Below, piece by piece: positions 41,207 to 64,000 of a stretch of 64,000 nucleotides of DNA (position 1 is the first letter of the stretch; the number at the start of each line of letters is the position of its first letter). Source of the stretch: Bythopirellula sp. (GTDB lineage Bacteria; Planctomycetota; Planctomycetia; Pirellulales; Lacipirellulaceae). The DNA lies in assembly GCA_965216565.1 (NCBI GenBank), contig OZ244170.1, positions 4,416,001-4,480,000 of the forward strand, in the 5' to 3' direction. The translations under genes were made by a program, and so were the position numbers. The notes below the pieces were generated by a model that saw nothing but the letters and a program-made list of their open reading frames with translations, did not search any database and was not told where the DNA came from.

Positions 41207-41923
41207 ATGGCAACTACTTCATCAATTGAATGGACGGAAGCTACCTGGAACCCTGTTACAGGTTGTTCCAAGATTAGTTCGGGTTGCGTCAATTGCTATG
41301 CTGAACGAATGGCTAAGCGGCTGGAAGCTATGGGCCAGGATAGATATGCAAATGGCTTTAAGGTCACATTGCAAAGAGACATAGTCGATCTTCCCTTGCG
41401 ATGGAAAAAGCCTAGGCTCGTTTTTGTCAATTCTATGAGCGACCTGTTCCATAAGGATGTTCCTGATGACTATATTTTCGACTGTTTTGAGGTAATGAAC
41501 TCAGCGAGCCAACATACGTTTCAGATTTTGACCAAGCGTCCGGACAGAGTTGTAGAACTAAAAAACCGTTTGTCTTGGGGTCCAAACATATGGATTGGTA
41601 CGAGCATAGAAAACTCTGAGTTTACATGGCGCTCAAGGCTAATCGCAAGAATACCTGCAGCAATTCGATTTCTTTCTGTGGAACCATTATTGGGGCCGAT
41701 ACCTCGGTTGCCATTGAAAAATATAAACTGGGTAATTGTTGGAGGTGAATCTGGACCTGGTGCCAGGCCACTACAAGCTGAGTGGGTCAGAAGTATACGC
41801 GATAGATGTATTTCTTTTTCCGTACCTTTCTTTTTTAAGCAATGGGGAGGTACTAATAAGAAGCGAACTGGCCGAGAATTGGATGGTCGTTTTTGGGATG
41901 AAATGCCAGTAGCCAAAGGTTAA
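41207..41923 (+). CDS. DUF5131 (phage Gp37/Gp68) three-Cys-motif protein
   Basis: [59 protein letters not shown]. Confidence 0.9.
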
Positions 41924-45086: not shown

Positions 45087-45332
45087 GCTTGGTTAGGAGG
45101 AAAGTGAGTTTCGGTGCCGTGGAACGCGATTAATACCATTGTACTCGCTCCGAAGAGAAACGGCACCTGGGTAGTCGCGACAACACTAAAGGTGGATGAA
45201 CCACGAAGACACAAAGGGCACGAAGAGCTAACAGGTGTATTACACGAACGAATTAACATTCGTTTACGGTTGTTGCTGTCGAAATCGATTGAGTCGAGCT
45301 GAGAAGATAGCCCCGATAGGGCGACAGACGAT

Positions 45333-46979
45333 CTACCCCACCATCACACCTTCTCGCTCATCTTTCGAGCTGAACTCTGTCTTCGTGCTATCGAATATCT
45401 GTTGGAAGGCATCTGGGCGGACAGCCTTTTGGGAATGCCGGCGGAAAGGGTGTTCGGTTTCTAGTCCCGATTGCTCGACGATTTCGCATGCCAGGGTTTC
45501 GAGCTGGGCGACGTTGGCTGCGAATTGGCGGAAGTATTCGCCGCGGGTTCGTTCCTCTAAGAGCCGCGTGTTCATTTCGCGGATGATCGGCATCTCTGAG
45601 ATGTTGACCGTGCCTGTGGCGGGGAGATCAGCGGTGTCGGCGTGCCACTCGCGGAAGAATTCTTGCATGAATTCGTTGAGCTTGCCCAGTTTGGAGAGTC
45701 GCGACAGGTTCCGCAGGTACATGGTCTGTTCGCACATGCGTCCCTGCATGAAAATGAACGCGGTGATCGACCAGTAGACGAGATAGTCCCAAAGAATTTT
45801 CACTGGCATGACGTTGGGATTGCCGAACATGCAGTATTGGTCCTGATAGGCCTTGGCCGTGCCGTAGTAGAAGCGTTTGAAAATTCGATCGTACGAAAAA
45901 GCACGAATGCGGAACTCTTTGCCGGTGAGGTCGCGGCGAATGAGATCGGTGAGGAACGTGTTGGAGAAGGCGATGAAATCGCTACCGGGGGAGTAGAAGG
46001 GATCGTGAAAAAATCCCGCCTCGCCGGTGATGCCCCAGCGATGCCCGGAGAATACCTGTTTGCATTCGACCGAGTAGTGCTTGATGGCACGGAAGTCTTG
46101 GACGTCGTCAATATGGGCTCGGGCGGCGGCGGCGCATTGGGGTTCGTGCTTGTCGAGCCAGGCGAGCGATTTTTCTAGCGAATTGATATCCGAGAGGTCG
46201 TGGTACTCTTCGGCAGCGACAATGCCCATGCTGGTGGAACCCGAGGCAAGTGGAATCAACCACACCCAATAGCCCTGGCCCATGAGGTGATTGGTGCTGA
46301 AGAAGCGAGCCGTTTTGTCGGCGTGCCCCTCGCTCCACTGGGGATCGTTGCACCAGTCGTCGATCTTGATGTGTTTTTTGAACCGGAACCAGGCGGAGTT
46401 GGCAACGTGGGGCGAGTCCTTCGCCAGATCGAGTTCCCTTTTCAAAAAGCAACGTCGGCCACTGGCATCGACTACCCAGCGGGACTCGACCGATTGCGCG
46501 CCCGCGTTGGTGTGAAAATCGACGCGATGCGACGAGCCGAGACGGCCCATATCGATATTTTTGATGTCGGCCTCGTCAATAAAGCGAATGCCACGTGCCA
46601 GGCACTCGTCGGCCAGGTAGTTTTCGAATCGGCCCCGATCGAGTTGGTAGCTGGGACACGGCGCGTAACGTTTGCCGCCGAGTTCTAAGCGATTCTCGAT
46701 TTGAGAGTTATCACCCGAGGGGAAGAAGAACCGTAGACCGAGTTTGGGTAGCTGATCTTTCAAGATGTGATCGCGGAGGCCCAAGATGCGGCCAAAGTAG
46801 TGCGCTGCGACTTCCACGGTCGACTCGCCAACTTTATGGGCCGCCTCGGGCACGGGATGCTCACGCTTCTCCAATACAGTGATGGACGCTTCCCGCAGCG
46901 ACTGTCGTACTTGCAGCGCCAGCGACAGCCCCGCGAGTCCGCCGCCAAGGATGGTGAGATCTTGTTTTTGTTGGTCCAT
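45333..46979 (-). CDS. Flavin-dependent halogenase-like oxidoreductase 2
   Basis: [39 protein letters not shown]. Confidence 0.8.
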
Positions 46980-47016
46980 CACTGGTTTGTCCTAGTTATG
47001 GTTATTCTTGCGCTGT

Positions 47017-47118
47017 GGAATCGAGAAAAAATAACTTCCGTTTTTTATTAGTTCCCCTCACCCTACCCTCTCCCCAAAGGGGCGAGGGACAGGGGAGAAG
47101 TTATTTTTTCTCGATTCC
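47017..47118. repeat. 102 bp element with perfect 22 bp terminal inverted repeats
   Basis: ggaatcgagaaaaaataacttc (47017-47038) / gaagttattttttctcgattcc (47097-47118) enclosing a family C hairpin. Confidence 0.8.
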
Positions 47119-47216
47119 CAGGTTGTTGTTGTAGGGTGCGTGGAGCAAAGCGCAACGCACCTGGGTTAAGTTTCCACTTCGTGCGTTTCGTTATCACTTC
47201 ACGCACACTACGATTC

Positions 47217-48839
47217 TCATATATTCAAAACCTCAAACACGCCATCCAAACGGTTCTCGCTTGCGTGCGAGTTGGGGAGTTCGATTTTCAATTCTGGCTG
47301 AGTTTTTTGGATTCGTTCGGTGATTTCCACCATCAAATCGCGGATGATCTGTACGTTGGCTTCAAAGCGTTGCTTCAAGGTGGCGTCGTCCACCGCTTCG
47401 CGCAGTTCGGCATTGAGCCGGGTCATTAATTCGATTTCGCTTTGGTCGACGAATCCCGCATCGGCACTATCAACGGGGTCGGCCTCGTGCCAATTGCGGA
47501 AAAACTCCTGCATGTTTTTGTTCATCTCGCGGATGTCTTCGATGCCTCCCGAGAGCGAGCGAATGAAGCTGATGTCGGTGAGTTTGTCGTTGAAGTACAG
47601 CAATGCTGGAAAGCCCCAGTAAACGGCGTAGTCCCACACAAACTTAAGCGCCATGATCCGCGGATTGCCAAACAGTGGGTATTGGTCCCGATAGGTAAGC
47701 AGGTTGTTGTGGAACAGTGTGAGGAAAATGCTCTGCAGAGTGGGTGCTGAATGCTCGATGGAATGGCCAGCGAGATCGTCATCGATGAGCTTGGTGATCA
47801 TCGTGTTGCCGATGGCAATGAAGTCGCTGCCAGGGGAATAGAACGGATCGAGCAATGCAGCAGCTTCGCCGGTGAGGGCCCAGCGGTCGGCCGAGAAGAC
47901 CTGTCGGGCGCCGCGGGCGATTTTTTTGATTGCAAGAAAGTCTTGCATCTTGTCGCGATGAGCTTCGACTTGCTCAGCACATTCTGGCTCGTGATGGTGC
48001 AGCCACTCGATGGCCTTCTCGAAGCTGTTCATTTCGGAAAGTGGATGAATCCGCGGGTCGGCGACGATGCCGATGCTGGTGGAGCCAGTCGCCAGGGGAA
48101 TAAGCCACACCCAATAGCCGGCGCCCATGAGGTGATTGGTGCTAAGCCAGCGACGAGGCACCTTGCCGGTGAGAGTTTGCCAATCAGGATCGTCACACCA
48201 CTGATCGATCTGGACTTCCGCGTCGAGCCGAAACCAGACGGCATTGATGTCGTGGCCCAGGTCTTCTTCCAGCTCGAGTTTTCGCTTGAGCAAACTGGCT
48301 CGACCGCTGGCGTCGACCAACCAACGAGCGTTGATCCTGTTTTCGTTACCGTCCTGCTCGAACCGCACTTGATGTGCGGAGTGTTCGCCCGGTTCGCTGT
48401 CCGAGTGAATCCCAATTTCTTTCACCTGGGAACCAGAGTAAATGGTGGCTCCCTGTTCCTGCACCGCATTGGCAAGGTAATTCTCCAGCCGGCCCCGATC
48501 GACCTGATAGCTGGGGGCGGAGAAAAATTCGCTGCCGCCCACTTCGGTGCCTTCAGCGAGCGTTTGGTGCGTGTCTTTAAAAAAGAACCGTAGGCCAAAT
48601 TTTGGCAGTTGATGGTCGGTTAGGTGTTTCTTGAGTTGTAGTTGTTCCCCAAAGTAGTGTGCGCCGATTTCCACCGTCGACTCGCCAACTTTGTGAGCCG
48701 CTTCAGGGACGGGGAACGTTTGTTTTTCGATCACCGCGATCCGCGTTTCGGGACGCTTCATCAGTAGTTGCTTGGTCAGCGTCAAACCGGCCAGGCCTCC
48801 ACCGAGGATGGCCACGTCGTATTGAGAGTCTTCCGTCAT
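47217..48839 (-). CDS. Flavin-dependent halogenase-like oxidoreductase 1
   Basis: GGGLAG, KVGEST, QLPKFGLRF, STNHL, WVWLIP, DPFYSPG. Confidence 0.8.
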   Translation of the reverse strand: MTEDSQYDVAILGGGLAGLTLTKQLLMKRPETRIAVIEKQTFPVPEAAHKVGESTVEIGAHYFGEQLQLKKHLTDHQLPKFGLRFFFKDTHQTLAEGTEVGGSEFFSAPSYQVDRGRLENYLANAVQEQGATIYSGSQVKEIGIHSDSEPGEHSAHQVRFEQDGNENRINARWLVDASGRASLLKRKLELEEDLGHDINAVWFRLDAEVQIDQWCDDPDWQTLTGKVPRRWLSTNHLMGAGYWVWLIPLATGSTSIGIVADPRIHPLSEMNSFEKAIEWLHHHEPECAEQVEAHRDKMQDFLAIKKIARGARQVFSADRWALTGEAAALLDPFYSPGSDFIAIGNTMITKLIDDDLAGHSIEHSAPTLQSIFLTLFHNNLLTYRDQYPLFGNPRIMALKFVWDYAVYWGFPALLYFNDKLTDISFIRSLSGGIEDIREMNKNMQEFFRNWHEADPVDSADAGFVDQSEIELMTRLNAELREAVDDATLKQRFEANVQIIRDLMVEITERIQKTQPELKIELPNSHASENRLDGVFEVLNI

Positions 48840-49024
48840 GTTGTTTCTGCTTGTGTTAGACACAGTGAGTTTTTAGCCGCAAAACGCGAGAAACCCCTCC
48901 CCTAGCCCCTTCCCCGCAGACGGGGGAGAGGGATTTAGGTGATCACCCTAAAGTTAAGGCTTCGTCAGTCTTTTTGTGCTTTTCGTGGCAATAATAGCCC
49001 CGGGTGTTGTGGAATCTTTCTTCA

Positions 49025-52000
49025 CTAACTTGGAACCGACTCGGCAACTTCCTGCACGTGGTCGGCGATTTCGGTGATCCAATATCTTTGTTTTTGGAAG
49101 GGATAGTTGGGTAAGGCAATTCGCTGGCGTGCCCAGGGCTTGTCGAGGGCTGGGAAATCGGGGTTGAAGCCTGACTGATACAATTGTCCCAATGCCGCTA
49201 GTAAGGAACTGCTAGCGTGTGTGTCGCTCGACAGGCTGGGGATGAACCGCGAGGCACTGGCAGCGGTTAACTGTTTCGAGAATTCGTTCATCGAATCCTC
49301 GGGCCCGACTCCCAGTACATATTGGGGATTCGTTGAGTGGAGCACTTCAAGTGCGGCATCACTTGGCGATTCAATGCAGTGGCGACGCCAGTAGCTGCCG
49401 CCCAACGACCGATGGACCGGAATCAACTGGGCATCCAAGCTGCACACTAGCGGCAAGTTCGGCGGATAGTAATTGAACGTATCGGCTAATGCCTCGAATC
49501 GATCGAGGGCAGCACGCTGGTCGTCATTCAAATCGGATTCGTCACTGGAAGGTGGAATATCGAATTCGCTTTGCAATCGTAAACGTTCTGCGATTAACAC
49601 CAGCGCGTCGAAGTAGCAAAGCCCCCCGGCAGCACAAGTCGCTGTGTATTGCCCGATTCCCGTGCCGAACACGGCGTCGGGTTCAATTCCCCACGATTGC
49701 CAAAGCTTGGCGATGCCTGCTTGTAAGGCGTAGAGATGCAGGTCGTTGGTTTCTGGGGGTTCGTGGTGATCAGCGGAGAACCAATCTTGTAGTTGCGAAG
49801 GTAATAGATCGCCCCCAGCGAAGTGGTCTGCCAGCCGCTTATCGAATTCGGTGATGAGACTGCGGAACTCAGGTTCTGCACTGTAGAGCTGGCGGCCGGC
49901 GGTGAGGTCGTCCGAAGCAGTGCCCGCGAAGACGCAGGCGACTTTTGCCGTGGAGGAAGCGGTGGGCGTGCCAGATTTCTTGCCATTGCCATTCACACTG
50001 TAGGCACCGTTGACTTCGGCTTGATTGGCCTTTGCTGCCAGGCGTTCGGACTCCTCGGTGAGCAAACGGTCGAGCCCGTTCAGGAGTTGTTCGCGCGACT
50101 CCGCCAGCAGGGCCACGCGGTGCTCGTGATGGCGGCGACCGACCCCGGCGGTATGGCAGATATCGGCGAGATCCGATTCTGGGTTGGTATCAATGAACTG
50201 GCGATAACGCTGGGCTAACTCGATGAGCGCTGCCGGACTGCGGGCACTGAGTGGGAGTAGATTGGCTGGCCGCTGCACTTCGGGGGCAGGCTCTTCGGCT
50301 GCAGTTTCGTCCGACTGCTCTGCAGAACTCAAGATCACATGAGCGTTGGTGCCGACTAGTCCCAAAGCAGTTACCCCGGCAACCCGTTGTTCTGCCTCGG
50401 GCCAAGCGGTTTGGTCGTTAACTACCTGAACGGGCAGACGCGACCACGGAATATGGGTGCTTGGTTTTTCGAAGTGCACCTGCCGTGGGATTACGCCGCT
50501 ATCGAGTGCGAGCACCGTCTTGATCAAACCAGAGATGCCGCCGGCCGCTTCCAGATGGCTGATATTCGCTTTGACCGAACCGACCAATAGCGGCTGGTCG
50601 CGCTTCCGGCCTTTGCCATAGACAGTTGCTGCGGCACCAAGTTCCATGGCATCGCCAAACTCGGTGCCTGTGCCGTGTGCTTCCAAATATTGCACTTCAC
50701 CTGGTGCGACGCCAGCGTCTTTGATTGCCTCACCAATCATACGGGATTGAGAGCGTCCGCTGGGCGAAGTGATACCGCCACTGAAACCATTGTGTACGAT
50801 CGCCCCGCCGCGGATCACGGCAAGCACACGATCGCCTTGGCGCTGGGCGTCGCTGAGTCGCTTGAGCACCACTACGCCGCAACCTTCGCCACGACCAAAA
50901 CCATTGGCCTCGGCTGAGAAAGATTTGCAGCGGCCATCGGGCGCCAGCAGTCCCGCTTTGCTCATCAACAGTGAATTCACCGGAGCGAGAATCGCGTTCA
51001 CCCCACCAGCCAGTGCCATGTTGCAATTGCCATCTTGCAAGCTGCGGACCGCTTGCAGCACAGCCACCAGGGAACTGCTGCTAGCCGTATCGACGGCGAT
51101 ACTGGGACCTTCGAAACCAAAGATGTAACTAATCCGACCGACACCGGCACTATGCGAGAGCCCCGCCCCTTGGAAGGCCTTGATGATTTCCTCGTCGCCA
51201 AGCCGCGGCAGGAACGCATAGTCCTGTCCCATGATGCCCATGAAGACGCCCACATTGGCGTCGGCCAGTGGTTGTGTGGCGATGCCGGCATGTTCCAGGG
51301 CGTGGTAGCTGTTTTCCAAGAGCAACCGATGTTGTGGGTCAATCCAGCAGGCTTCTTGTGCAGAGATATTGAAAAACTCAGGATCGAATTGGCCTATATC
51401 TTCGAGAAACCCTCCTTCGCGGGTTGGCATTTTGCCCGGGGCGCCCTCAGCATCGTAGAAGTGTTCGATATCCCATCGGTCTGCGGGTATCTCATTTACA
51501 GAATCAACGCCCTGCAGCAGGTTGTCCCAAAACTCGTCGAGATTGTGAGCCCCAGGGAAGCGACAACTCATGCCTACGATGGCGATGTCTTCGCGAGCTT
51601 GCGGCGCGATGTGCGGAGCGTCTGTTGCGGATGCCGCGATGGCAGATGGTTCGGCAGATTCTTCTTCTCCCTGCCCGACGATCATTTCCAGTAGATAATC
51701 GGTGATGGCATCGATGGTTGGATGCTCGAAGAACATGGTCGGACCGATGGCAATGTCATCGCCTAGCAAGCGCGCCAGTTCCGTGCCGAACTCAACGGCC
51801 ATCAGCGAGTCGAGGCCCATTTCGATGAGTGGACGATCGGTTTCCGGCGCTTCGCTGCTAGAGAGGATCTCTCCGATGGTGCCCTGGATGGTCGCCAGCA
51901 GGAGTTCGCGCTGGTCTGGACCGCGTAGTTTCTTGAGCTTTGTGACCAGCTCCGAGTCGCCACTTTGACGGCGACGCGTGGCAGGCATCAGTTCTGCGAG

Positions 52001-55000
52001 CACGGGCGGTGCTTGTCCTCCCATGCTGCTGCGCATCCGTTGCCAATCGACATCAATGGCCAAAGATTGAGTGATCTTCGCCTGCTGCACTTTGCCCAAT
52101 GCTTCGTGTGCTTCGCCTGCGGTCATCGGGGTGATTCCCTGCAGGGCCATTCGCTTGAGGATCCGCTCGTCGTCGGCCATGCCTTCGGTCCACGGTCCCC
52201 AATTGACGCTCGTTGCCGGTAGGCCTTGGGCTCGACGGTGCCAGGCGAGGCCGTCGAGGTACGCGTTGGCTGTGGCGTAGTTACTCTGTCCCGGCGAACC
52301 CAATATCGAAGCGGCCGACGAATAGAGTACGAAGAAATCGAGGTCGAGCGACTTGGTGTGTTCGTGGAGTAGCGTGCTGCCGATGATCTTGGGACCGAGG
52401 ACTTTTTGAAAACGATCCCAAGTTTGATTGGCGAGCAAGGCATCGTCCAACACACCTGCAGCATGAATCACACCCGCTAGCGGCTGGAGATCTTTGCCGA
52501 AGCGAGCGAACAACTTCTCGACGTCCGCCTGATTGCTCAGATTGGCGGAGTGGACAACGACCCGACACCCGGAATGCTCGATTTCATCGAGAATTTGTTG
52601 TGTCGATTCGTCGGGAGCACGACGCGACACGAGCACCACTTCCCCCGCACTCTCGTCGGCAAGCCATTTGGCAGCCAGTCGGCCAAGTTTTCCCAGGCCA
52701 CCGGTGATGAGATAACTGGCGTCTGCTTTGATCTCCAAGTTCCCTGCGGAACGATTGGGTCGCGCTTGCTTCATCCGGGGTACGAGCAACTGCGAATCGC
52801 GAATCGCAAACTGGCTGTCGGTGGTCTCAGCCAGCAAGATTTCTACCAGCGAATTCGCCGGGGCCGCTTGCTCGCTCGCCTCGGGTTCAAGATCGACGAG
52901 TCGACAACGTAGTTCGGGTTGCTCAGCCCCAATCACTCGACCCAAGCCCCAGAATTGGGTCTGGTGCGGATCGACTGTGAGATTCGCTGCGGTTCCATGA
53001 ACCGCGGCCTCGACTGCCCCAACGGTAACTAGCTGTAGTCCGCATTCCAAACCGCGGATTTCTTTTTCTTCCAACGTAGCAATTAAGTGCAGTAGGCCGG
53101 CGCAGTCTGATTGGGTTCCGTTCGGTATTTCATCCAGGGCGTCTGAAGTTTTGTCCTGACGGTTCACAAACCAGCAGATGCCCGCCGGGGCCGATTGAGC
53201 GGCTGACTGTTCGAAGAACTCTTTCCAGTTTTCGTGTTGCATTCCGCAGAATGTATAGTGCGATTCGCCTTGCTCAGAAAAAGCGGTATTTGGCGAAAGG
53301 CTGATTCTCGTTACGGAATGCCCTTCTGCTGTTAACTTCTCAATAGTGTTGCGAGCCAGATCCTTAGGATCGTCCTCATGCTCTATTACCCACCATTGTT
53401 TGGAATCTGTGGTGGCAGGCGGCAGACGCGACGGCTCCCAGCGGAGCTCGTATAGCAGACGCTCGGCGCCCGAGCCACTGAGTTTGCGGAACGCAGCGCG
53501 ATCGAACTGTTGGACTTTGAGCCCTTCGATTTCGACCAACACGTTGCCGGAGTTGTCGAATAGGTGCAGGTCGGCGGTGCGAAGGTTGCCTTCGTTTTGC
53601 GTCCAATGGGCGTGGCACCAAACCTCGCCTTCAATAGGTTGCAGGCAACGAACACGACCAATTCCAACGGGCAGAAACAGGTTGCCGTCGTCGTTTTGCA
53701 GCAGTCCCACGGCTAGGCTGTGCAAAGCCCCGTCGAGCAGCATCGGCGGCAGGGTAAAGCCACGTACATCGCTGTTGGTTGTCAGTTGGGCCAGGACATC
53801 GGTCTGGGAATATCGAAGTGACTGAATCGTTTGGAATTCTGGGCCGTACTGCAGTCCCAATTCGAGCATCTTGGCGTAAAAGTCCTCGGGATTGGCGGAA
53901 TGCTCGCAAGCGGCTTCCACTTGGCTGCGATCAATGACTGCCGGCGCGGGGCGGTCTGTTTTGGCAATTTTCGCGGAGAAGTTGCACTGCCAGTTGGCAC
54001 TGCCGGTAGGCTGCGAGTGAGTTTCGATCGTACGGGTTTTGTCCTCAGCGGTACGAACAATGGTCTGGAGTGTCGTCCGCGCGCTTGGTCGCAGGGGCTG
54101 CTGAAAAGCGATGTCTGTTAACTCACCACCCTCGGCGGCAGCCAAGGCAAGTTCCACGAACGCTGCGCCGGGTACTACAACGTGTTCCATCACCTGATGA
54201 TCGGGCAGCCAGGAGGGGCTGTCGGGTTCTAGGAAACTCTCGAAACGCGATTCGTTTGCGGTCCCCGCGAGAGAGACTTTGCTTCCCAACAGCGGATGGG
54301 CGGTATGGTAGTCGGAGTGAAATGCCCCCGGTTTGTCGGGGCCCCAAAAGCGACGGCGCTGAAAGGGATAAGTCGGGAGCAAAATGCGCTGGCAGGACTT
54401 GCCGGCAAACAGTTCGTCGAAGTTGGGCGTGACGCCGTGAACATAAAGCTGGCCGACGGCTTGGAGAATTGACTCGTTGTCGGAGCTCTCTTTTTGGAGG
54501 CAGCTAATGAGGCTGCTGGGGTCTTGTTTCCAATTAGCGGCCGCCATCCGGGAAAGAACTGCCTGTGGTCCGAGCTCAAGAATCGCATCGCAGCCCATAT
54601 CGTTAAGTGTTTCGATTGCCGTCGAGAATCGAACGGGCTGACGAATGTGTTGCGACCAATAACTTGCGTCTAAAACTGTGTCGGCTGCCACGACTTGGCC
54701 GGTCACATTGCACACCAACGGAATTTGGGTGGGCTGAAAATCGATCTGTGCGGCGAACTGCTGGAACGGTTCCAGCACAGGATCCATCAATGCCGAGTGG
54801 AATGCGTGTGAAGTGGTAAGGGACTTCGTGCGGATGTTGAGCTCTGCAAAACGGTTCTCTGCCTGGGCGACTTTTTCTTCTGCGCCGCTGATAACCAAAT
54901 GGGTGCCATTGAGGGCCGCGAGCGAGAGCCCGCTGCTTTCGATTTCATCTTGGACCGCGTCAAGCGGAGTAAATACGGCAAGCATGCGTCCGCCGGCGGG

Positions 55001-57085: not shown

Positions 57086-57266
57086 GTTTCTCGGTGGTAT
57101 CGTCTGGATCCTTTTGGAATTCACATCTTTTTCTTAACAGGAGGAAACGGAGGAAGCAGAGGAATAGATTGGAACTTTTTCTGTTTTCGCTGTTTCCTGC
57201 TGTTTGAATCAATTCACTGTCGAATTGAGTTTCTGTTGTTGAGTCTCGTTCTATTGAAACGTGAAT

Positions 57267-59282
57267 TTATGCGTTTCCCAACTCGCGCATTAATTCTTGA
57301 TAGGCTTCGTCTTCGGACATGGACTCGACGTCCGCTTGCAGCTGGTTGCCCGGCGGATTGGCATCGCTTGAGGCGGGCACTACGGCTGCGGGGCTGTCGA
57401 CCTTGGGTGCAGGTTCCTTGGTTTGCTTATCTGCTGACAAGGTTTCCACTAGGAACTCCGCCAGATCGACGATGCGGGGATAATCGAAAACCAGGGTGGC
57501 CGGGAGGGGATGGTCGCTCCCCACTTCTGCTTGCAGTTGGTTGCTGACCTCCACGATCATTAGCGAATCGAGCCCAACGTCCAGGAAGCGTGCCTCCGGC
57601 GGAGGCAGTTCTTGCTCGGGAGTGAGCGTCTGGACCATGGTTTGAATGAATGTCGTCGCCTCGCGTTTCCAATTGGCTTTGTGGGTGTGGGCGAGCAGTG
57701 GAGCCAACTGGGGTGCGGGCAGTTGCGACTTGCTCGGCAAAGCATCGCCAGTCATTGCAGTTTCTGCGGATGGACTCGCACTGTGCTGTTCCCTCAGAAC
57801 TTTCTTGAGGACTTTGCCGGAGGGGTTCCGGGGCAGCTTCTCGAGCAGGAACACTCGTCGCGGTGCTTTATAATTTGCCAAATGGTCTTGGCCGAATTGC
57901 TTGATCTCCGAAATAAATTCTTCCTCGTCATTCGCAGTGCCCTCGGCAGGCGCGACGAAAGCAACAACCTGTTCGCCAAAGACTTCATCGGGAAGCCCCA
58001 CTACCGCCACTTCTGCGATACTAGGGTGATCGAGTAGCACACGCTCTACTTCCGCGGGGTAAACTTTCAGCCCTCCCACCGCGATCATGTCTTTCAGTCG
58101 ATCGACGATGTAGAAGAAGCCATCTATGTCTTGTTTGCCGATATCACCCGAGTGGAACCAGCCATCACGAAGCACCTCGGCTGTTTCATCTGGTCGATTC
58201 CAATAACCGAGCATCACGTTAGGGCCGCGAATGGCGATCTCGCCAAGTTCGTCAGCAGGGCAAGGTTCGCCCGTTTCGGAATCGACAATTCGCATTTGCA
58301 CGTTGTCGATCGGCGTTCCAATCGAACCGGCTAAGTACTTGAGGTGATGGTTGTAGCTGGCAAAAGGAGACGTTTCTGTTAAACCATAACCTTCGTTGAT
58401 CGGCATGCCAAATTTATCCAGCCAGCGCTCACTAATCTGGAGCGGTAGCGGGGCGGCAGCGGAGAAACAGTACCGCACGCTCGCTAGATCGCTGGGCACG
58501 CAGCTCTCGTGAAAGAGCTGAAACATAGTGGGCACGCCGTAGAGTTGGGTGACCTGTTCGGTGGCGATCAGTTGCTTGGACTCTAAGAGATCAAAGCTTC
58601 GCTGCAGCACCAACTTCGCACCGACGTTTAACGCGGAATTGAGCAATGCGTTTTGGCCAAAACAGTGAAACAATGGCACGGCTAACAGGATACGATCCTC
58701 CGCACGCATGTCGCAAAGATGATTGAAGGCATGCACATTGCTGCGGACGTTGCTGTGCGACAGGGTCGCGCCTTTGGGGACCCCGGTTGTGCCGGAGGTG
58801 TAGAGTATCAAGGCAGGGTCGTCCGGTTTCGCATCTACCCAAGCTGAGCTGCCAGGTAGATCGGTCGGCAGTGGCTTGCCATCGCATTGGCTGGCATCTT
58901 CGGTTACTTCGAGTACAGCGATGTCGGAAGACTCTAAAGCGGTGGAAACCGCAGCGAGTGCCGTGGAATCGGTAACCAAGGCTCGAGCCCCCGAGTCGGA
59001 GATCACAAAGCTAACTTCGTCGGCTACCGATCGTGTGCTAATCGATAACGCCACACCACCGATGCGTAATGCCGCGTAGTACCAAACCACAAACGAAGGC
59101 ACATTCGGCAGCATGATGGCCACGCGATCGCCGGGCGCGACACCTGCACGACGCAGGAGTTCAGCCGCTTGTATCGTGAGCGCGTCGAGCTGAGCGTAGC
59201 TGTAGCGACGGCTCTCGAAAACGAGTGCTTCCCGATCGGGAACCAGGCGCGCCGGGACGGTCAAATGTTCGCAAATATTCAT
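57267..59282 (-). CDS. Acyl-AMP/CoA ligase fused to ACP (loading protein)
   Basis: YTSGTTGVPKG, EGYGLTE, FHSGD, LPRNPSGKV; C-terminal ACP GLDSLM and acidic docking helix. Confidence 0.9.
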   Translation of the reverse strand: MNICEHLTVPARLVPDREALVFESRRYSYAQLDALTIQAAELLRRAGVAPGDRVAIMLPNVPSFVVWYYAALRIGGVALSISTRSVADEVSFVISDSGARALVTDSTALAAVSTALESSDIAVLEVTEDASQCDGKPLPTDLPGSSAWVDAKPDDPALILYTSGTTGVPKGATLSHSNVRSNVHAFNHLCDMRAEDRILLAVPLFHCFGQNALLNSALNVGAKLVLQRSFDLLESKQLIATEQVTQLYGVPTMFQLFHESCVPSDLASVRYCFSAAAPLPLQISERWLDKFGMPINEGYGLTETSPFASYNHHLKYLAGSIGTPIDNVQMRIVDSETGEPCPADELGEIAIRGPNVMLGYWNRPDETAEVLRDGWFHSGDIGKQDIDGFFYIVDRLKDMIAVGGLKVYPAEVERVLLDHPSIAEVAVVGLPDEVFGEQVVAFVAPAEGTANDEEEFISEIKQFGQDHLANYKAPRRVFLLEKLPRNPSGKVLKKVLREQHSASPSAETAMTGDALPSKSQLPAPQLAPLLAHTHKANWKREATTFIQTMVQTLTPEQELPPPEARFLDVGLDSLMIVEVSNQLQAEVGSDHPLPATLVFDYPRIVDLAEFLVETLSADKQTKEPAPKVDSPAAVVPASSDANPPGNQLQADVESMSEDEAYQELMRELGNA

Positions 59283-59327
59283 GGTGTTCGGAGGCTGCTA
59301 CGTTTCGCGTAGCCAGAGTAATTGCAG

Positions 59328-61034
59328 CTAACTGTCGCCAAGAAATTGATGGTAAGATTCCAGCACAGGGGAGATCGAATTGACAATTGCTCCGTCACTG
59401 CCAATTTGATCGACCAAGGCTGCAAGATCTTGCTCCAGCCAACGATCCGAGTCATCCATGAGAAAAGGTTGTTTGCCAGTCGGCTCGCAACCCACCGCAA
59501 GCGTTGCCGCCGTATAAAGGGGTTCTAGTGTTTCGCCCAACAGGGCCCGCCCATCGTAATGCCCGCAAAGCATCTTGGCACGTAAGTCGAGTGCCTGGAT
59601 AGAAAACACCAAGGCAACTGCGGAGTAGTGTTGAAATAGTTCGACCGAACGCCAGGCCATGTTTGCCGATCCCCAGCTCAGACCGTTGATATTTTGGTTA
59701 AATTGCTCGGCATGGGTGGGGAAGTGCTCGACGATTGGGTTGCCCAGGTAGGTGAGCATCGGCATGATCGAATTGCCGGTAATCTGCAATCCCTTCAAAC
59801 CCATGTTGTAGGGCAGTCGATCGTTGCCTCGTAGCGAACTTGGCAAGCCGTTGTTAAAAGATGGCGCGACCAGCGACGCGATCTGCACATCGAGATGCTT
59901 GGCAAGTAAGCCGAGAAAGCGACGCAAATCGTCCATCGCCATACCAACATACTGACCCAGGAAATTGCCACTTTGGTAGAACTGCTCCGACTTGGAATCG
60001 ATCAGCGGATTATCGGAGACCGCGTTCATTTCGGTCTCAACCGTCTCAGTGATTCGAGCCATTCCCTCGATGATGGGGCCCATGTATTGAGGCAAGCAGC
60101 GGAGTGAGTAGCGGTCTTGGATGCCCCCCGGCTGGATCTCAGAATTCGCGGCACCGTTGAGCGCGGCCCGATCTTCTTTGAAGAGCCGATGCATCATATT
60201 AGCCGTCCAGACCTGACCAGGATGGGGCTTGCGGGCGTGGACGAAACCCTCAAAGGGTTCGATTTGCACTTGGAGTGCTTCAAGCATCATGGCTTGCGTG
60301 CAGAGCGCAAGTGCCATGAGCCCGGTCGATTCAGCTATGCAGTTCGCGGCAATCGCCGATGAAAACGACGTGCCATTGACGATGGCTAGACCTTCCTTGG
60401 GACGAAGTTCTAATGGCTCCAAGTTTAATGCTTCCAGCGCAGCCGGGCCGGGTATCTCTTTGTCGCCGAACTCAACGTTGACAGAGTTGCTGTGCCCGGT
60501 GATGGCTCGCGCAATAGCGGAAAGTGGGACGAGATCGCCGCTAGCGCCGATCGACCCCAGTTCACGCACCACGGGAGTAGCACCCGAGTTCAAAAAGTGA
60601 ACGAGCCGTTGGATAATTTCTAGACGTGTGCCAGAGTAACCACGGAACAGGACATTGGCTCGTAGAGCCATCGCGGCCCGGACGTGGCGTTTGTCGACTG
60701 GCTGCCCTGCACCAGTGGCTAGGAACGAGAGCAGATTGTTCTGCGATGCGGCCGCAAGATCGCAGGGCACCGGCACGTCGGCCATTCCACCGAAGCCGGT
60801 GGTAACTCCATAGATCGCCCAGCCTTCGTCAACCGCCCGTTCGACCAAGCCAGCAGCAGTGGCGATGCGCTCAATTCTTGTTGGGTCGTCACTGAGAGAA
60901 AGTTGGCAGGTCGCTTTGCCGATCTCGCAGACTTGCCCAATCTCTAGAGGGGAACCGTCGATCACAAGTTGTGGCGATGAGGAGACCCGCTGATCTTCGG
61001 CTATCAACATATTTTCTTCGCTGCTCGAGAGCAT
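59328..61034 (-). CDS. Aromatic amino acid ammonia-lyase, Phe-type (PAL)
   Basis: YGVTTGFG, MIO-forming GASGD, QDRYSLRC; specificity segment NLLSFLATGAG (FL) as in cyanobacterial PALs. Confidence 0.85.
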   Translation of the reverse strand: MLSSSEENMLIAEDQRVSSSPQLVIDGSPLEIGQVCEIGKATCQLSLSDDPTRIERIATAAGLVERAVDEGWAIYGVTTGFGGMADVPVPCDLAAASQNNLLSFLATGAGQPVDKRHVRAAMALRANVLFRGYSGTRLEIIQRLVHFLNSGATPVVRELGSIGASGDLVPLSAIARAITGHSNSVNVEFGDKEIPGPAALEALNLEPLELRPKEGLAIVNGTSFSSAIAANCIAESTGLMALALCTQAMMLEALQVQIEPFEGFVHARKPHPGQVWTANMMHRLFKEDRAALNGAANSEIQPGGIQDRYSLRCLPQYMGPIIEGMARITETVETEMNAVSDNPLIDSKSEQFYQSGNFLGQYVGMAMDDLRRFLGLLAKHLDVQIASLVAPSFNNGLPSSLRGNDRLPYNMGLKGLQITGNSIMPMLTYLGNPIVEHFPTHAEQFNQNINGLSWGSANMAWRSVELFQHYSAVALVFSIQALDLRAKMLCGHYDGRALLGETLEPLYTAATLAVGCEPTGKQPFLMDDSDRWLEQDLAALVDQIGSDGAIVNSISPVLESYHQFLGDS

Positions 61035-61354
61035 CTTGCCCTTTAATGTGCCTACGCTTTTGCGGTCGGTGCGGTAATCTTTGGGGAACGTCGGGACACG
61101 TTTAGGTAATTTGCGTTAACTGTCGAATTGGCCGGTTATTCTAATAGAATTTCTAGGCGTGAAACAGTTGCTGGAAACCGAACGATCGTCTGCTTCCCTG
61201 AGAATACGACAGATTGGCTTGATTCGTTCAGGGTGGTCGGCACCGAGGATTGGCGCCGACACGGGCTGCTGGGAGTGGGTTTCAGAGATAAGTCCCGGTT
61301 GACTAGGCACTTAAGTCAGATTGCCATTCGCCCCCAGAGCGAGTGGCACCTTGT

Positions 61355-64000
61355 CTAGGCAGAAGATGCACGATCCGAGGGCCAGCTAGAAGGTCCGTGC
61401 AGAATTCGGGATAAGCAGGGCACAAAATAGAGGGCGAGAATCGTAGCCCCGCCAACTCCCCCAGCAACGGTAATGGCCAGCGGAGGCCAAAAACGTCCAC
61501 CGCCCAGAATCAGTGGCGTGAAGCCAACCATGGTTGTGATCGTCGTGGCAATAATGTGACGGGTGCTGCCAACAACCACTTCGACCAGTTCCGACACATT
61601 TCCCCGCCGAGCCTCTGGATTCTCTCGAATCGCCGCGAGGACAACGATCGAATCATTAATGGCAACGCCCACCAAGCCCATCGTGCCGACAATCGCCATG
61701 AAGCCGAAGGGGTAATCGAACAGCCACAAAGCTAATGGCCCCAAAGCCGCGGCAAGTGCGCCGACGACAATTACAATCAATGCGTAGCGAAACGATCGGA
61801 ATGATATCACTAGGGTGAGGATCATCATTGCGAATAGCACCACGGCATTGGCAATGAGACTTTCGACCGCGGCAGTGCGCTCGGCATTCTCCCCTTTGAA
61901 CGTCATTTCATATCCGGGGGGAAGAGAAAAATCTGATTCTGCCAAGCGACGTTTGAAATCCGCCACCACGGTCGAGGGCAGCACGCCTGCGGTAATGTAA
62001 GCCTTCACTTCGTTAGTACGTTGGCCATTGATGCGGACAATCGCGGCGACGTTGGAACCGAGTTCCAAGCTAGCCAAGGCGGCAAGGGGAACGGTTCGCG
62101 GCGGAGGGGGGCCTGTGTTGGGAGATGCCGACGTGGGGGGATTGGTCATTGGGGGACCACCTGGCAGGTTTTGCGTGGCAATAGGTAGTTGGAGTGCGGC
62201 GAGCCGATCGATTTGGTTGGAACCGGTTTCCGCCATCTTGATCCGCACCGGGAGTTCCTCGTCGCCGTCCAAAATCTTGCCAGCAGGAGCTCCGTCGAGC
62301 ATCGTGTATAGCTGCTGGGCGACTTCCATTTCACTCAATCCGGCGCGAGCGAGCTTCTCGGAGTCGACCTGCACCACGAGCTTAGGAATCGTCTCTTCGG
62401 AGTCGCTGCGGGTGTGAATAACGCTCGAGGTTTGACTTAGCAACACGCGTAGCTCGCCTCCCAACTGCTGCAGTCGCGACAAATCGGGGCCGGCAAGGCG
62501 GATTTCAATCGGCGCATCAAAGGGGGGACCCTGCTCTAGTTGCCTGACGATAACACGGCATTGAGCGAACTCTTGGTCGAGCTGCGCCTGCATGCGCAGC
62601 ACGGTATCGCCAAAATCGGCGTCCGCGGCCAAGTCTAATATGGCTTGGGCATAGAAAGGCGTGCCACGCCGTCGGGGTACCACGTTGTAATAGAACGTTG
62701 GTGCGCTGCGGCCGACGAACCAGTGCGACCTCTCCACTTCGCTAAAGGTATCGACAGTCTGCTCAATCGATCGGACCGTTGCTAACGTTTGCTCGATCGG
62801 CTCGCGGGCAGGTAGTTCCACTTCGATTTGGATTTGGTTCCGATCCGAAGCGGGGAAAAACTGCTCGGGCAAATCTCGGGCGACGTAGAATCCCAAGGCA
62901 GGTAGCGCCATGCCTAAGAGAATTCCCAACACCGGGAAGCGAAACACAATCTGCAACGTCCAGCGGTAGATGCCTGTGAGCAGTCGGCTCGAAAAACCAT
63001 AATCCACCAAGCTACGACTTCCAGAATCAATACGTAACAAGGCCAGCAGCGCTGGCACTACCGTCATGGCGAGTAGAAAGGACGAAGCGATGGCCAGGAT
63101 GACACTCATGGCAATCGTGCCCACAAACTCGCCAGGCGGACCGGGCAGTGTGGCGATTGGCATGAAGGCGAGCGCTGTGGTCATCGAAGAACCAAACAAC
63201 GGCATCGCCAGATGACGAATGCCTAGCGAGATGGCGCGGGCTGGCGACTTACCTGCGATAATGCGGCTGCGAACGTCTTCGACCATGACAATCGCGTTAT
63301 CAATGAGCAGACCCAGAGCGACGATCAATCCGGTGATCGACATCTGGTGCAAGGGGATCTCGAGAATTCGCATACCAGCCAATACCATCAGCGAAGCTAA
63401 CGGTAACGTCACCCCCACGACCAACATGCTCCGCCAGCCCATGAGGAGCAGCACCACCGCAGTGACAGCCCCGGCCCCAAGGAGCAGATTTTTTAGCAAC
63501 AGATGGAGACGCGACTCGATGTAATCGCTTTGAGAAAAAATGATTTCCACGACGAGATCGGCACTGTATTTGTCTTGAAATCTCGAGATCGCCGAGTCTA
63601 ACGACTTAGCCCAGCGGTCGACCCGCATTTGGTTGTCGACTAGCGCCCCTAGCACGATTGCGGGCTGTCCATCGACAAGAGCCCATTCACCGGGCGGTTG
63701 CGTCAACCGCTTCTTGACTGTAGCCAGGTCCGATAGCTTCCGCGGCGCGCTGCCAGCGCCGATTTGGACAAGGGTATCTGCCAATTGCTGGCGGGTGGAA
63801 ACGTTATTCTCCACGTCGACCGACATTCCGGAACCAACTCCCTGCATTGAGCCAGCAGGCTGAGTCACATTGCTGTCAGCAACCTGACGGGCGATCGCAC
63901 CGATGGGAACTCCCAAACCGGCAAAAACGGTTGGTTCGATTTCTGCAACGAATTCTTCGCCCGGATCGCCAAAGATTGCTACCGATTCGGTGCCACGAAT
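61355..64000 (-). CDS. RND efflux permease (AcrB-like), 5' end outside the window
   Basis: GLLIDNAIV, FFP...RNQ, GVAINDSIV, GFTPL...FWPPLA; frame open to base 64000. Confidence 0.92.
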   Translation of the reverse strand: MRGTESVAIFGDPGEEFVAEIEPTVFAGLGVPIGAIARQVADSNVTQPAGSMQGVGSGMSVDVENNVSTRQQLADTLVQIGAGSAPRKLSDLATVKKRLTQPPGEWALVDGQPAIVLGALVDNQMRVDRWAKSLDSAISRFQDKYSADLVVEIIFSQSDYIESRLHLLLKNLLLGAGAVTAVVLLLMGWRSMLVVGVTLPLASLMVLAGMRILEIPLHQMSITGLIVALGLLIDNAIVMVEDVRSRIIAGKSPARAISLGIRHLAMPLFGSSMTTALAFMPIATLPGPPGEFVGTIAMSVILAIASSFLLAMTVVPALLALLRIDSGSRSLVDYGFSSRLLTGIYRWTLQIVFRFPVLGILLGMALPALGFYVARDLPEQFFPASDRNQIQIEVELPAREPIEQTLATVRSIEQTVDTFSEVERSHWFVGRSAPTFYYNVVPRRRGTPFYAQAILDLAADADFGDTVLRMQAQLDQEFAQCRVIVRQLEQGPPFDAPIEIRLAGPDLSRLQQLGGELRVLLSQTSSVIHTRSDSEETIPKLVVQVDSEKLARAGLSEMEVAQQLYTMLDGAPAGKILDGDEELPVRIKMAETGSNQIDRLAALQLPIATQNLPGGPPMTNPPTSASPNTGPPPPRTVPLAALASLELGSNVAAIVRINGQRTNEVKAYITAGVLPSTVVADFKRRLAESDFSLPPGYEMTFKGENAERTAAVESLIANAVVLFAMMILTLVISFRSFRYALIVIVVGALAAALGPLALWLFDYPFGFMAIVGTMGLVGVAINDSIVVLAAIRENPEARRGNVSELVEVVVGSTRHIIATTITTMVGFTPLILGGGRFWPPLAITVAGGVGGATILALYFVPCLSRILHGPSSWPSDRASSA

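Follow-up and report, generated by a model that had tools for sequence, protein, structure and literature searches.

The locus studied here is a putative biosynthetic gene cluster built around a type I polyketide synthase (PKS) in Bythopirellula sp. (GenBank assembly GCA_965216565.1, contig OZ244170.1). It lies at the end of a stretch of 64,000 nucleotides (G000:C1:4416001-4480000), which is called the window; coordinates are window positions. Among described systems, the aryl-polyene, xanthomonadin and flexirubin pathways, which use type II PKS, resemble this cluster in showing a ligase-activated aryl acid, a chain built by ketosynthase (KS), ketoreductase (KR) and dehydratase (DH), a flavin halogenase of the same family, a KS partner without the active Cys and a membrane exporter. 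They differ in that they consist of discrete enzymes and start from hydroxybenzoate, whereas the window cluster contains a multidomain type I PKS, two halogenases and a predicted cinnamate starter. Neither a discrete type II KS with an inactive partner nor LolA-like, MMPL, glycosyltransferase or acyltransferase genes were found in or beside the window cluster, and all of them are present in another planctomycete locus (L117).

The cyanobacterial furanolide clusters (cyanobacterin cyb, nostoclide ncl and maculalactone mac) contain a homologous lyase and ligase pair side by side, with 45-50% identity. According to PMC13288894, CybB makes coumarate and CybC makes its CoA ester. CybB uses Tyr and many cyanobacterial homologues show YH at the selectivity switch, whereas the window lyase shows FL. 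Unlike the furanolide ligases, the ligase of the window has its own acyl carrier protein (ACP) and would feed a type I PKS, and genes for the thiamine diphosphate (ThDP)-dependent acyloin synthase (CybE) and the furanolide synthase (CybF) are absent in and beside the window cluster. The cyanobacterial loci of our scan indicate the origin of the lyase and ligase pair. One of them, the Nostoc locus L015, contains genes for DAHP synthase, lyase, P450, ligase, ThDP enzyme and KAS III-like enzyme; four of these, for the lyase, the ligase, the ThDP enzyme and the KAS III-like enzyme, correspond to the furanolide core CybB/C/E/F. The phenylalanine ammonia-lyases (PALs) PbPAL (from Planctomyces/Rubinisphaera brasiliensis) and the cyanobacterial AvPAL and NpPAL belong to the same 4-methylideneimidazol-5-one (MIO) family as the window lyase and share its ASG triad and FL pair, but they were studied as isolated biocatalysts, whereas the window lyase is part of a gene cluster. 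One sentence in the main text of PMC5651878 places the PAL candidates of that study, without detail, in fatty-acid or polyketide operons. No pathway or product tied to PbPAL was found in the literature examined.

The most likely explanation of the window cluster, which we hold with somewhat better than even confidence, is that it makes, by way of an unusual PKS, a halogenated phenyl-diene or phenyl-polyene acid from phenylalanine, and that this acid is then exported. The same estimate, made for the explanation as a whole, covers the proposal that seven genes (exporter pair, PAL, ligase-ACP, PKS and the halogenases Hal1 and Hal2) are a self-contained biosynthetic gene cluster.

Gene content of the cluster

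Six long open reading frames (ORFs), all on the minus strand, lie head to tail from 45333 to the window end, and the family of each was confirmed by Pfam and NCBIfam. A first-pass annotation of the same DNA had listed these six co-oriented genes together with a number of motifs (ASG and FL in the lyase, HAFH in the acyltransferase (AT), and LDD in the KR), all of which are found in the translations, as is GHSVG in the first AT. To its list has to be added a seventh gene, for a membrane-fusion protein (MFP), just outside the window, whose stop is overlapped by 4 nt by the start of the exporter permease of the resistance-nodulation-division (RND) family. The genes are the following:

window-equivalent 64501-65616, outside the window (genome read beyond it), minus strand: HlyD-type membrane-fusion gene (MFP)
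61355..64000, full gene to window-equivalent 64504, minus strand: RND (AcrB-type) permease, Pfam ACR_tran E 5e-108
59328..61034, minus strand: predicted MIO-dependent phenylalanine ammonia-lyase, 568 aa, Pfam Lyase_aromatic E 2.6e-131
57267..59282, minus strand: ligase-ACP fusion, 671 aa, Pfam AMP-binding, AMP-binding_C and PP-binding
49025..57124, minus strand: type I PKS, 2699 aa from a GTG start, from the Pfam domain table, translation and motif positions
47217..48863, minus strand: Hal1, predicted flavin-dependent halogenase, 548 aa, with GGGLAG, 'WVWLIP' and the Lys in 'LPKFG'
45333..46982, minus strand: Hal2, paralogous predicted flavin-dependent halogenase, 549 aa, with the same motifs as Hal1 and the Lys in 'LPKLG'

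The lyase and the ligase-ACP fusion

The lyase shows the ASG triad in 'SIGASGDL' and the FL selectivity pair in 'LLSFLATG'. Among solved structures its closest relative is 9EQ5, with E 2.5e-192 over 540 aligned residues, followed by the PALs of Anabaena and Nostoc; the comparison with the cyanobacterial AvPAL and NpPAL gives E values from 1e-155 to 1e-161. The protein of entry 9EQ5 is named as PbPAL in PMC12535398. For PbPAL, PMC5651878 gives a match at 19/19 PAL active-site positions and deamination of L-Phe at ~500 mU/mg, together with a selectivity rule in which FL indicates PALs and His at the second position indicates tyrosine ammonia-lyases (TALs). The lyase alignment contains 37 sequences (that of the window and 36 from the loci described below), two of which are unreadable at the switch; the remainder show FL (20), YH (12), SH (2) and AH (1). 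The YH pair belongs to many cyanobacteria and to Herpetosiphon, and SH to an Acidobacteriaceae (L032) and a Bryobacteraceae (L041) locus. More generally, His at the second switch position marks a TAL or a histidine ammonia-lyase (HAL). All nine readable lyases of Planctomycetota and Verrucomicrobiota loci, the window's included, show FL, and ASG is kept in 34/35 aligned homologues readable at that site. The lyase is the sole PF00221 gene in the genome. Its homology to PbPAL and the FL pair indicate that the lyase probably converts L-Phe to trans-cinnamate, as the first-pass annotation had proposed.

The ligase-ACP fusion shows the carrier-protein serine in 'GLDSL'. Its best solved relatives are the feruloyl-CoA synthetase 8wev (E 1.7e-91) and the near-twin 8weu (E 1.3e-91, deposited as a fatty-acyl-CoA synthase), followed by FadD13 and plant 4-coumarate-CoA ligases. 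A scan for the ligase-ACP in one genome per species gave 80 loci, in which the window proteins were compared by tblastn. A lyase is within the fetched flank in 33/41 loci with a ligase identity of at least 43% (in six of the eight lyase-less loci of this group the ligase is at most 360 bases from the contig end), and in 3/39 loci with a ligase below 43%. Such ligases are found beside lyases of this type in several phyla. In a database protein of 3354 aa (P0026), ligase, ACP and the entire PKS, including its Ser-bearing second KS, are naturally fused, which places the ligase-ACP directly ahead of the first KS (KS1). Gene linkage and this fusion suggest that the ligase-ACP is the loading module of the PKS, in which cinnamate would be adenylated and loaded on the fused carrier; this agrees with the loading role assigned to it at first pass.

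The polyketide synthase

The PKS shows the domain order KS-AT-DH-KR-ACP-KS(Ser)-AT0 and nothing after it, neither an ACP nor a thioesterase. An alternative ATG at 57085, 13 codons in, gives a protein of 2686 aa, as in the database copy P0006. The domains are the following:

55715..56983, minus strand: KS1, condensing ketosynthase, with Cys215, HGTGT and NIGH
54425..55372, minus strand: AT1, malonyl-type acyltransferase, with GHSVG at 674 and HAFH at 773
53435..54298, minus strand: DH, with the catalytic His in 'LPDHQVMEHVVVP' and the YGPEF and DGALH motifs
52184..52720, minus strand: KR, B-type, with LDD at 1559 and Ser, Tyr and Asn present
51692..51892, minus strand: ACP, with GLDSL at 1770
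50315..51592, minus strand: KS2, also written KS(Ser), non-condensing ketosynthase, with Ser at residue 2015 in place of the active Cys
49028..50047, minus strand: AT0, degenerate acyltransferase fold, the second Pfam Acyl_transf_1 stretch, with 'GTGIGQ' in place of GHSxG

By motif, module 1 has its full catalytic set (KS Cys-His-His, AT GHSxG, DH His, KR Ser-Tyr-Asn and ACP Ser). HAFH indicates malonyl specificity of an AT, and an E-alkene results where a B-type KR (LDD) works together with a DH. These intact motifs support what was proposed at first pass, namely malonyl extension followed by B-type reduction and dehydration. That annotation had described a type I PKS with one extension module. 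This has to be corrected, as the PKS goes beyond a single module: the KS(Ser)-AT0 didomain had been overlooked, and a release enzyme is lacking. Compared with an ordinary modular PKS extension module, the second KS-AT of the window PKS is without its catalytic set and without its own ACP.

KS2 reads 'DTASSSS' and keeps HGTGT and NISH, i.e., both catalytic His, and AT0 shows no HAFH-type motif. KS1 and KS2 of eight full clusters were aligned with five ordinary KS from L012, L014, L017 and L041; the broken or short loci L008, L019, L020, L021, L032 and L033 were not used. At six columns all 13 condensing KS share one residue and all eight KS2 share another: T1958V, L2002F, C2015S, L2024Q, D2070S and F2254L. 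Ser replaces Cys in 8/8 full clusters, the two His motifs are kept in KS2, and the Thr of VKTN is Ala in 8/8 KS2 domains. A search of a protein collection with residues 1835-2699 gave 7950 matches, of which the best 120 were examined; 106 of these have 2550-2800 aa and, with the fusion P0026, 107 show this architecture. Ser is at the second KS site in 107/107 (100 DTAS and 7 DSAS), and the position of the AT nucleophile is Gly in 100/107, the motif pattern finding nothing in the other seven. Their database names are generic only ('SDR family oxidoreductase', 'acyl transferase domain-containing protein'). Across relatives KS2 is 62-79% identical, among the best-kept parts of the cassette, whereas AT0 is the worst-kept part, at 29-44%; this is not what would be expected of a relic. 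The nearest solved KS-AT structures are ordinary ones, the bimodule core 7zma and then CurL and DEBS, and give no hint of function. Our guess is that KS(Ser)-AT0 most likely takes up or retains the completed chain so that synthesis can end (off-loading or chain-length control). We favour such a role because the didomain sits where the next KS would take the chain and no thioesterase is present.

The predicted flavin-dependent halogenases

Hal1 and Hal2 are 42% identical, and both show GxGxxG (GGGLAG) and WxWxIP ('WVWLIP'). A phmmer search against solved structures gave 16 matches for Hal1 and 12 for Hal2, all of them flavin halogenases or the uncharacterised Cytophaga protein 3nix, and the best solved match of Hal2 is CndH (3e1t). 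The Lys of LPK(F/L)G aligns with the Lys of 3nix 'QKFG' and with that of CndH 'FPIKRG', which, from a count along the chain, we take to be the catalytic K76. The alignment of the family contains 20 of 23 sequences (one truncated, one with a spurious long N-terminus and one without a start were left out), and G13, G14, G15, G18, K80 (model numbering), W243, W245, I247 and P248 are invariant in 20/20. The AlphaFold model of Hal1 based on that alignment has a mean predicted local distance difference test score (pLDDT) of 88.7 and a predicted template-modelling score (pTM) of 0.90. Its Foldseek matches, listed to rank 42, are CtcP, PltA, PltM, RadH, MalA', ChlB4, FasV, Bmp2, CmlS, Mpy16, CndH or 3nix, and kynurenine monooxygenase is in the list from rank 47. 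Thus, the model predicts that Hal1 folds like a halogenase, and both flavoproteins, as judged from their sequences, carry every hallmark tested for flavin-dependent halogenases. The earlier description of two halogenase-like flavoproteins is supported by motifs, Lys alignment and invariant residues for both, and by the predicted fold for Hal1.

The best sequence or fold matches, PltA, CndH, Mpy16, Bmp2 and ChlB4, act on carrier-bound substrates; they show the same three motifs and, like Hal1 and Hal2, no tryptophan-binding module. The window proteins differ from them in their low identity (only ~15-21%), in an expected substrate without pyrrole or phenol, and in a helical C-terminal part of their own, of about 190 residues in the Hal1 model.

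Hal1 orthologues are 61-73% identical. A maximum-likelihood tree of 24 sequences, from which two truncated rows and duplicates were dropped, shows Hal1 (7 rows) and Hal2 (8 rows) as separate clades, each with 100/100 support and joined at 87/82. One Hal1 and one Hal2 are kept in each full cluster; since each forms its own 100/100 clade, their duplication predates the spread of the cassette. The lone halogenase of L010 falls in the Hal2 clade and the halogenases of L032 fall outside both clades. The outgroups include three planctomycete sequences, one of them from L117, whose family member is 33-35% identical to the window halogenases. L117 1-13975 (G132) is a complete planctomycete aryl-polyene-type cluster containing KS, a KS-like partner, O-methyltransferase, acyltransferase, ACP, glycosyltransferase, LolA-like, MMPL, DUF3261 and halogenase genes.

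The cassette in other genomes

The cassette was found in 7/7 other genomes examined in full: five Pirellulaceae metagenome-assembled genomes (MAGs), one Verrucomicrobiales MAG and one complete planctomycete genome. The protein identity per part across them is 29-79%. Because the same gene set recurs in these seven genomes the arrangement is far from chance, and the synteny that the first-pass annotation had left to be checked is conserved. The Pirellulaceae MAGs (L003-L007) contain lyase, ligase-ACP, the full KS-AT-DH-KR-ACP-KS-AT protein and Hal1 in unchanged order; in L003 the identities are 62% for the lyase, 57% for the ligase, 77% for KS1, 79% for KS2, 42% for the second AT and 73% for Hal1. 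In the Verrucomicrobiales MAG L011 the order of lyase, ligase-ACP and PKS is as in the window, and the halogenase pair is upstream of the MFP-RND genes. A Hal2 orthologue (69-74%) directly follows Hal1 in four of the five genomes G001-G005; in the fifth (G005, a Verrucomicrobiales MAG) a 51% Hal2 orthologue is beside Hal1 on the opposite strand, tail to tail.

Of 401 genomes sampled from the phylum, with G000 among them, 21 have a Hal1-family match (E <= 1e-60). Adjacent Hal1/Hal2 pairs with 61% and 43% identity to Hal1 are found in G075 and G100, complete genomes that belong to the same genus; the whole region was checked in G100 and the halogenase pair only in G075. G100 shows, on one strand throughout, lyase, ligase-ACP, a PKS with KS2 (72%) and the second AT (29%), Hal1, a Hal2 orthologue (61%) beside it, MFP and RND. 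Homologues of the MFP-RND pair adjoin the cassette in L003, L005, L006, L007, L009, L010, L011 and G100, with varying position and orientation. L004 shows no MFP-RND beside the cassette, and a sulfatase gene precedes its lyase. The Pirellulaceae MAG L019 (9121-21000) shows fragmentary matches only (lyase of 234 aa, a PKS frame ending after ~1060 aa and Hal1 of 367 aa), and this copy may be decaying or poorly assembled.

Parts of the cassette are also found in other combinations. Nostoc L012 contains lyase, ligase-ACP and KS-AT-DH-KR-ACP, followed by a separate protein that opens with an ordinary KS (Cys) and an AT (GHSVG). The Acidobacteriaceae MAG L032 (8274-21752) contains lyase, ligase-ACP, KS, an AT-DH-KR-ACP protein, two halogenase paralogues and a non-ribosomal peptide synthetase (NRPS) condensation domain, and looks like a system for capping a peptide with a halogenated aryl-dienoyl group; upstream of it is a gene for a SnoaL-like cyclase. 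The extension module thus heads at least two other assembly lines, those of L012 and L032, as a first module of the ordinary kind. Thermoanaerobaculia loci show lyase, ligase-ACP and a PKS of ~1550 aa. Four loci (L009, L010, L013 and L016) contain lyase and ligase-ACP without a PKS. L010 (2182-13044, a Verrucomicrobiales MAG) shows MFP-RND, an FL-type lyase, ligase-ACP, one Hal2-clade halogenase and a sulfotransferase. L013 (Chitinophaga) and L016 (a Pirellulaceae MAG) contain, besides lyase and ligase-ACP, a pyridoxal phosphate (PLP)-dependent decarboxylase. Just past this trio, L016 (13936-17145) encodes a 1069-aa fusion of two cyclic-nucleotide-binding domains, a BFD-like [2Fe-2S] domain and a nitric-oxide-synthase oxygenase domain. 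As lyase and ligase-ACP recur in such varied contexts, the aryl-acid loader is a mobile cassette.

Proposed pathway

In the proposed pathway, PAL would deaminate L-Phe to trans-cinnamate, and the ligase would adenylate cinnamate and load it on the fused carrier protein, which would pass the cinnamoyl group to KS1. AT1 would supply malonate, and KS1, the B-type KR and the DH would build (2E,4E)-5-phenylpenta-2,4-dienoyl-ACP; further rounds by the same module may give a longer phenyl-polyenoyl chain, their count being unreadable from the sequence. Hal1 and Hal2 might each add one halogen to a carrier-bound intermediate, with reduced flavin from a reductase encoded elsewhere. As the ring lacks activation, the halogens would most likely go to an enol or vinyl carbon of the chain (e.g., C2 at the beta-keto stage) or, which would be unprecedented, to the ring. 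KS(Ser)-AT0, predicted to be unable to condense, would replace a downstream module, and the MFP-RND pair would export the product.

Several points weigh against this explanation. The best NCBIfam model for the ligase is a generic long-chain fatty-acid CoA ligase subfamily, below the cut-off. The intergenic gaps within the cluster, of 45-320 nt, are no proof of a single transcript. No thioesterase was found in the cluster, and the sole PF00975 hit in the genome is ~1.7 Mb away. The terminating role of KS(Ser)-AT0 is a guess, and its intact His-His pair fits a malonyl-ACP decarboxylase as well. The substrates of the known flavin halogenases are phenols, pyrroles, indoles or enolisable carbons, whereas cinnamoyl and phenyl-dienoyl thioesters are electron-poor, and to our knowledge halogenation as written here has no precedent. 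The lyase of L032, which also has twin halogenases, shows SH instead of FL, and for this reason the substrate of L032 may be an activated ring. In L010, which has no PKS, a Hal2-clade gene accompanies the lyase and ligase-ACP genes; this may mean that halogenation comes before extension and hints that Hal2 may act already on cinnamoyl-ACP.

The first-pass reading holds up in the main but is incomplete, and two parts of its pathway are affected. The order proposed there, extension and then halogenation, is not borne out, given the gene content of L010. As for the halogenated phenyl-dienoyl product, the halogenase nature of Hal1 and Hal2 stands, but a plain phenyl-dienoyl thioester is not the electron-rich substrate of known flavin halogenases.

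A more specific proposal is made only tentatively, and we hold it to be rather improbable in its full form: that the twin halogenases act on a vinyl or enol carbon, or on the bare phenyl, of a cinnamate-derived thioester, that the Ser-KS and dead AT are a new terminating or chain-length device, and that halogenated aryl polyenes would arise in a manner convergent with the type II xanthomonadin pathway. We know of no demonstration that this halogenase family halogenates a non-activated cinnamate-derived thioester.

Alternative explanations

The alternative that survives best, possible but with the balance clearly against it, is a type I-PKS version of the aryl-polyene pigment pathway. The module would be iterative, KS(Ser) would be a chain-length-factor-like partner of KS1, the product would be a long phenyl-polyene acid halogenated on ring and/or chain, and the MFP-RND pair would move it to the envelope. 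Several features agree with it: the nearest halogenase-family outgroup examined sits in the textbook aryl-polyene cluster of L117, no module is found downstream, and the Cys-less KS is kept at its high identity (62-79%). According to PMC3691225, xanthomonadins bear 0-2 Br, a halogenase gene is part of their clusters, and aryl-polyene type II systems pair a KS with an inactive partner. However, iteration leaves no sequence signature, and the homologous module in Nostoc and Acidobacteriaceae precedes further modules or an NRPS, like a non-iterative module. KS(Ser) moreover keeps both His and is five domains apart from KS1, and the typical LolA, glycosyltransferase and acyltransferase genes are absent from the cluster.

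It is unlikely that KS(Ser) is a malonyl-ACP decarboxylase of the KSQ or KS0 kind and that the halogenases act, like CmlS, on the active methylene of malonyl- or beta-ketoacyl-ACP, giving alpha-halo- or dihalo-acyl units joined to the cinnamate part. Some condensation-inactive KS domains carry Ser. In the KSQ of loading modules and the KS0 of hydroxymethylglutaryl (HMG)-synthase beta-branching cassettes the Cys is replaced and the His pair kept; KS2 shows this hallmark, with both decarboxylation His invariant. Among the NCBIfam models CmlS ranks first or second for Hal2 and Hal1, with scores far below the cut-off. Non-condensing KS domains that make acetyl-ACP from malonyl-ACP are documented in PMC11350588 and PMC10006238, and alichondrichlorin, a planctomycete compound, ends in an alpha-chloro-beta-hydroxy acid (PMC11848864, section 3.1). 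Unlike KSQ and KS0, KS2 is C-terminal behind an ACP instead of preceding a loading ACP, is fused to a Ser-less AT and has Ser rather than Gln. Neither a working AT and ACP partner nor HMG synthase (HMGS) or enoyl-CoA hydratase (ECH) genes were found in or beside the cluster for such a role. AT0 appears unable to load malonate, the Thr of 'VKTN' is Ala in all eight KS2, the ligase-ACP-PKS fusion points to cinnamoyl priming of KS1, and the intact KR and DH argue for full beta-processing.

It is very unlikely that Hal1 and Hal2 are hydroxylases or other oxidoreductases, making for example a phenol from the cinnamoyl ring. Their fold is common to flavin monooxygenases, as the kynurenine monooxygenase from rank 47 illustrates, weak matches lead to geranylgeranyl reductase and QhpG/LodB models, a sulfotransferase gene adjoins the L010 variant, and the expected substrate is poor for halogenase chemistry; against this, GxGxxG, WxWxIP and the Lys are invariant in the whole family alignment, and all solved sequence matches and the listed fold matches to rank 42 are halogenases or 3nix.

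That the lyase serves His or Tyr catabolism and is a mere neighbour of an unrelated PKS is hardly tenable: although it is the only PF00221 gene in the genome and its NCBIfam PAL and HAL model scores are both below cut-off, its switch is FL instead of SH or HL, its best matches are assayed PALs, it is linked to ligase-ACP and PKS in the relatives examined, and no hut genes are nearby.

Limits of the cluster and neighbouring genes

The genes past Hal2 vary over the five genomes G001-G005 (alginate lyase, a PLP enzyme, a BNR/cyclophilin protein, one of unassigned family and a P-type ATPase), and in G100 the MFP-RND pair comes directly after Hal2. The cluster end is placed at Hal2 (45333) because the next downstream genes differ among relatives. 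In the window, the next gene (42840-45086, minus strand) encodes a 748-aa protein with multihaem cytochrome c motifs (Cytochrome_C7, C554 and paired CXXCH), HEAT repeats and C-terminal TPR repeats; it was rejected as a cluster member, since it is not kept beside the cassette in relatives. A weak hairpin of five pairs is 11 nt past the Hal2 stop. A promoter and terminator scan of 44500-64000 gave five promoter-like sites where 7.3 would be expected and 25 terminator-like sites where the expectation is 22.4, with no signal above shuffles. A search for sequencing runs brought up no RNA data set, and no convincing small ORF was found in the 320-nt gap between RND and lyase.

Upstream of MFP, a 501-aa ORF was considered as an outer-membrane factor and rejected, with a sub-threshold PEP-CTERM hit and no tblastn match in 80 related loci. 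Further upstream are the common planctomycete families PSCyt1/2, PSD1 and DUF1501. On the other side of the cytochrome c gene, the window contains a PDZ / YscW-like / DUF4214 protein gene (39706-41001, plus strand), then a DUF5131 (phage-type) gene (41207-41923, plus strand) and, after it, a 288-aa ORF without a family match. Elsewhere the genome shows two phosphopantetheinyl transferase (PPTase) hits and one flavin reductase hit. A second giant ORF of 3057 aa with two KS domains has a PPTase-like gene ~7 kb off (G000:C1:2353222-2355531 and 2345936-2346142).

Relation to known pathways and significance

Each enzyme comes from a known family, the lyase-ligase pair being common to furanolide clusters and the halogenase family to aryl-polyene clusters. 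Their combination, in which a fused loader and a single full module are joined by an invariant Ser-KS and its dead AT, two halogenases and an RND exporter, with no thioesterase, is without a characterised counterpart in the searched papers. Literature searches, whose coverage left most subscription journals outside, found no described product, cluster or characterised homologue, in line with the first-pass view that this is not a characterised pathway. A possible link to alichondrichlorin was considered and set aside. This compound, an ester of p-hydroxybenzoate with a C26 chloro-hydroxy fatty acid, does not derive from Phe, and PMC11848864 proposes no gene cluster for it. The chrysophaentin paper PMC10366177 is not relevant to the cluster.

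A 2025 review of the phylum lists only a handful of planctomycete metabolites and none of this type (PMC12673574). Within the phylum the cassette ranks among the more common PKS architectures. The KS-AT-DH-KR-ACP-KS(Ser)-AT0 layout is shared by at least 107 protein clusters (90% identity), and several of these relatives are on contigs of 4.5 to 7.8 Mb, i.e., of whole-chromosome size. Very few planctomycete metabolites are known and fewer are tied to genes. The cluster raises two questions of enzymology: how flavin halogenases handle a substrate without an activated ring, and what role a strictly conserved Ser-ketosynthase plays at the end of a PKS without a thioesterase. If the more specific proposal given above is true, Planctomycetota and Verrucomicrobiota would have a route of their own to halogenated aryl polyenes.

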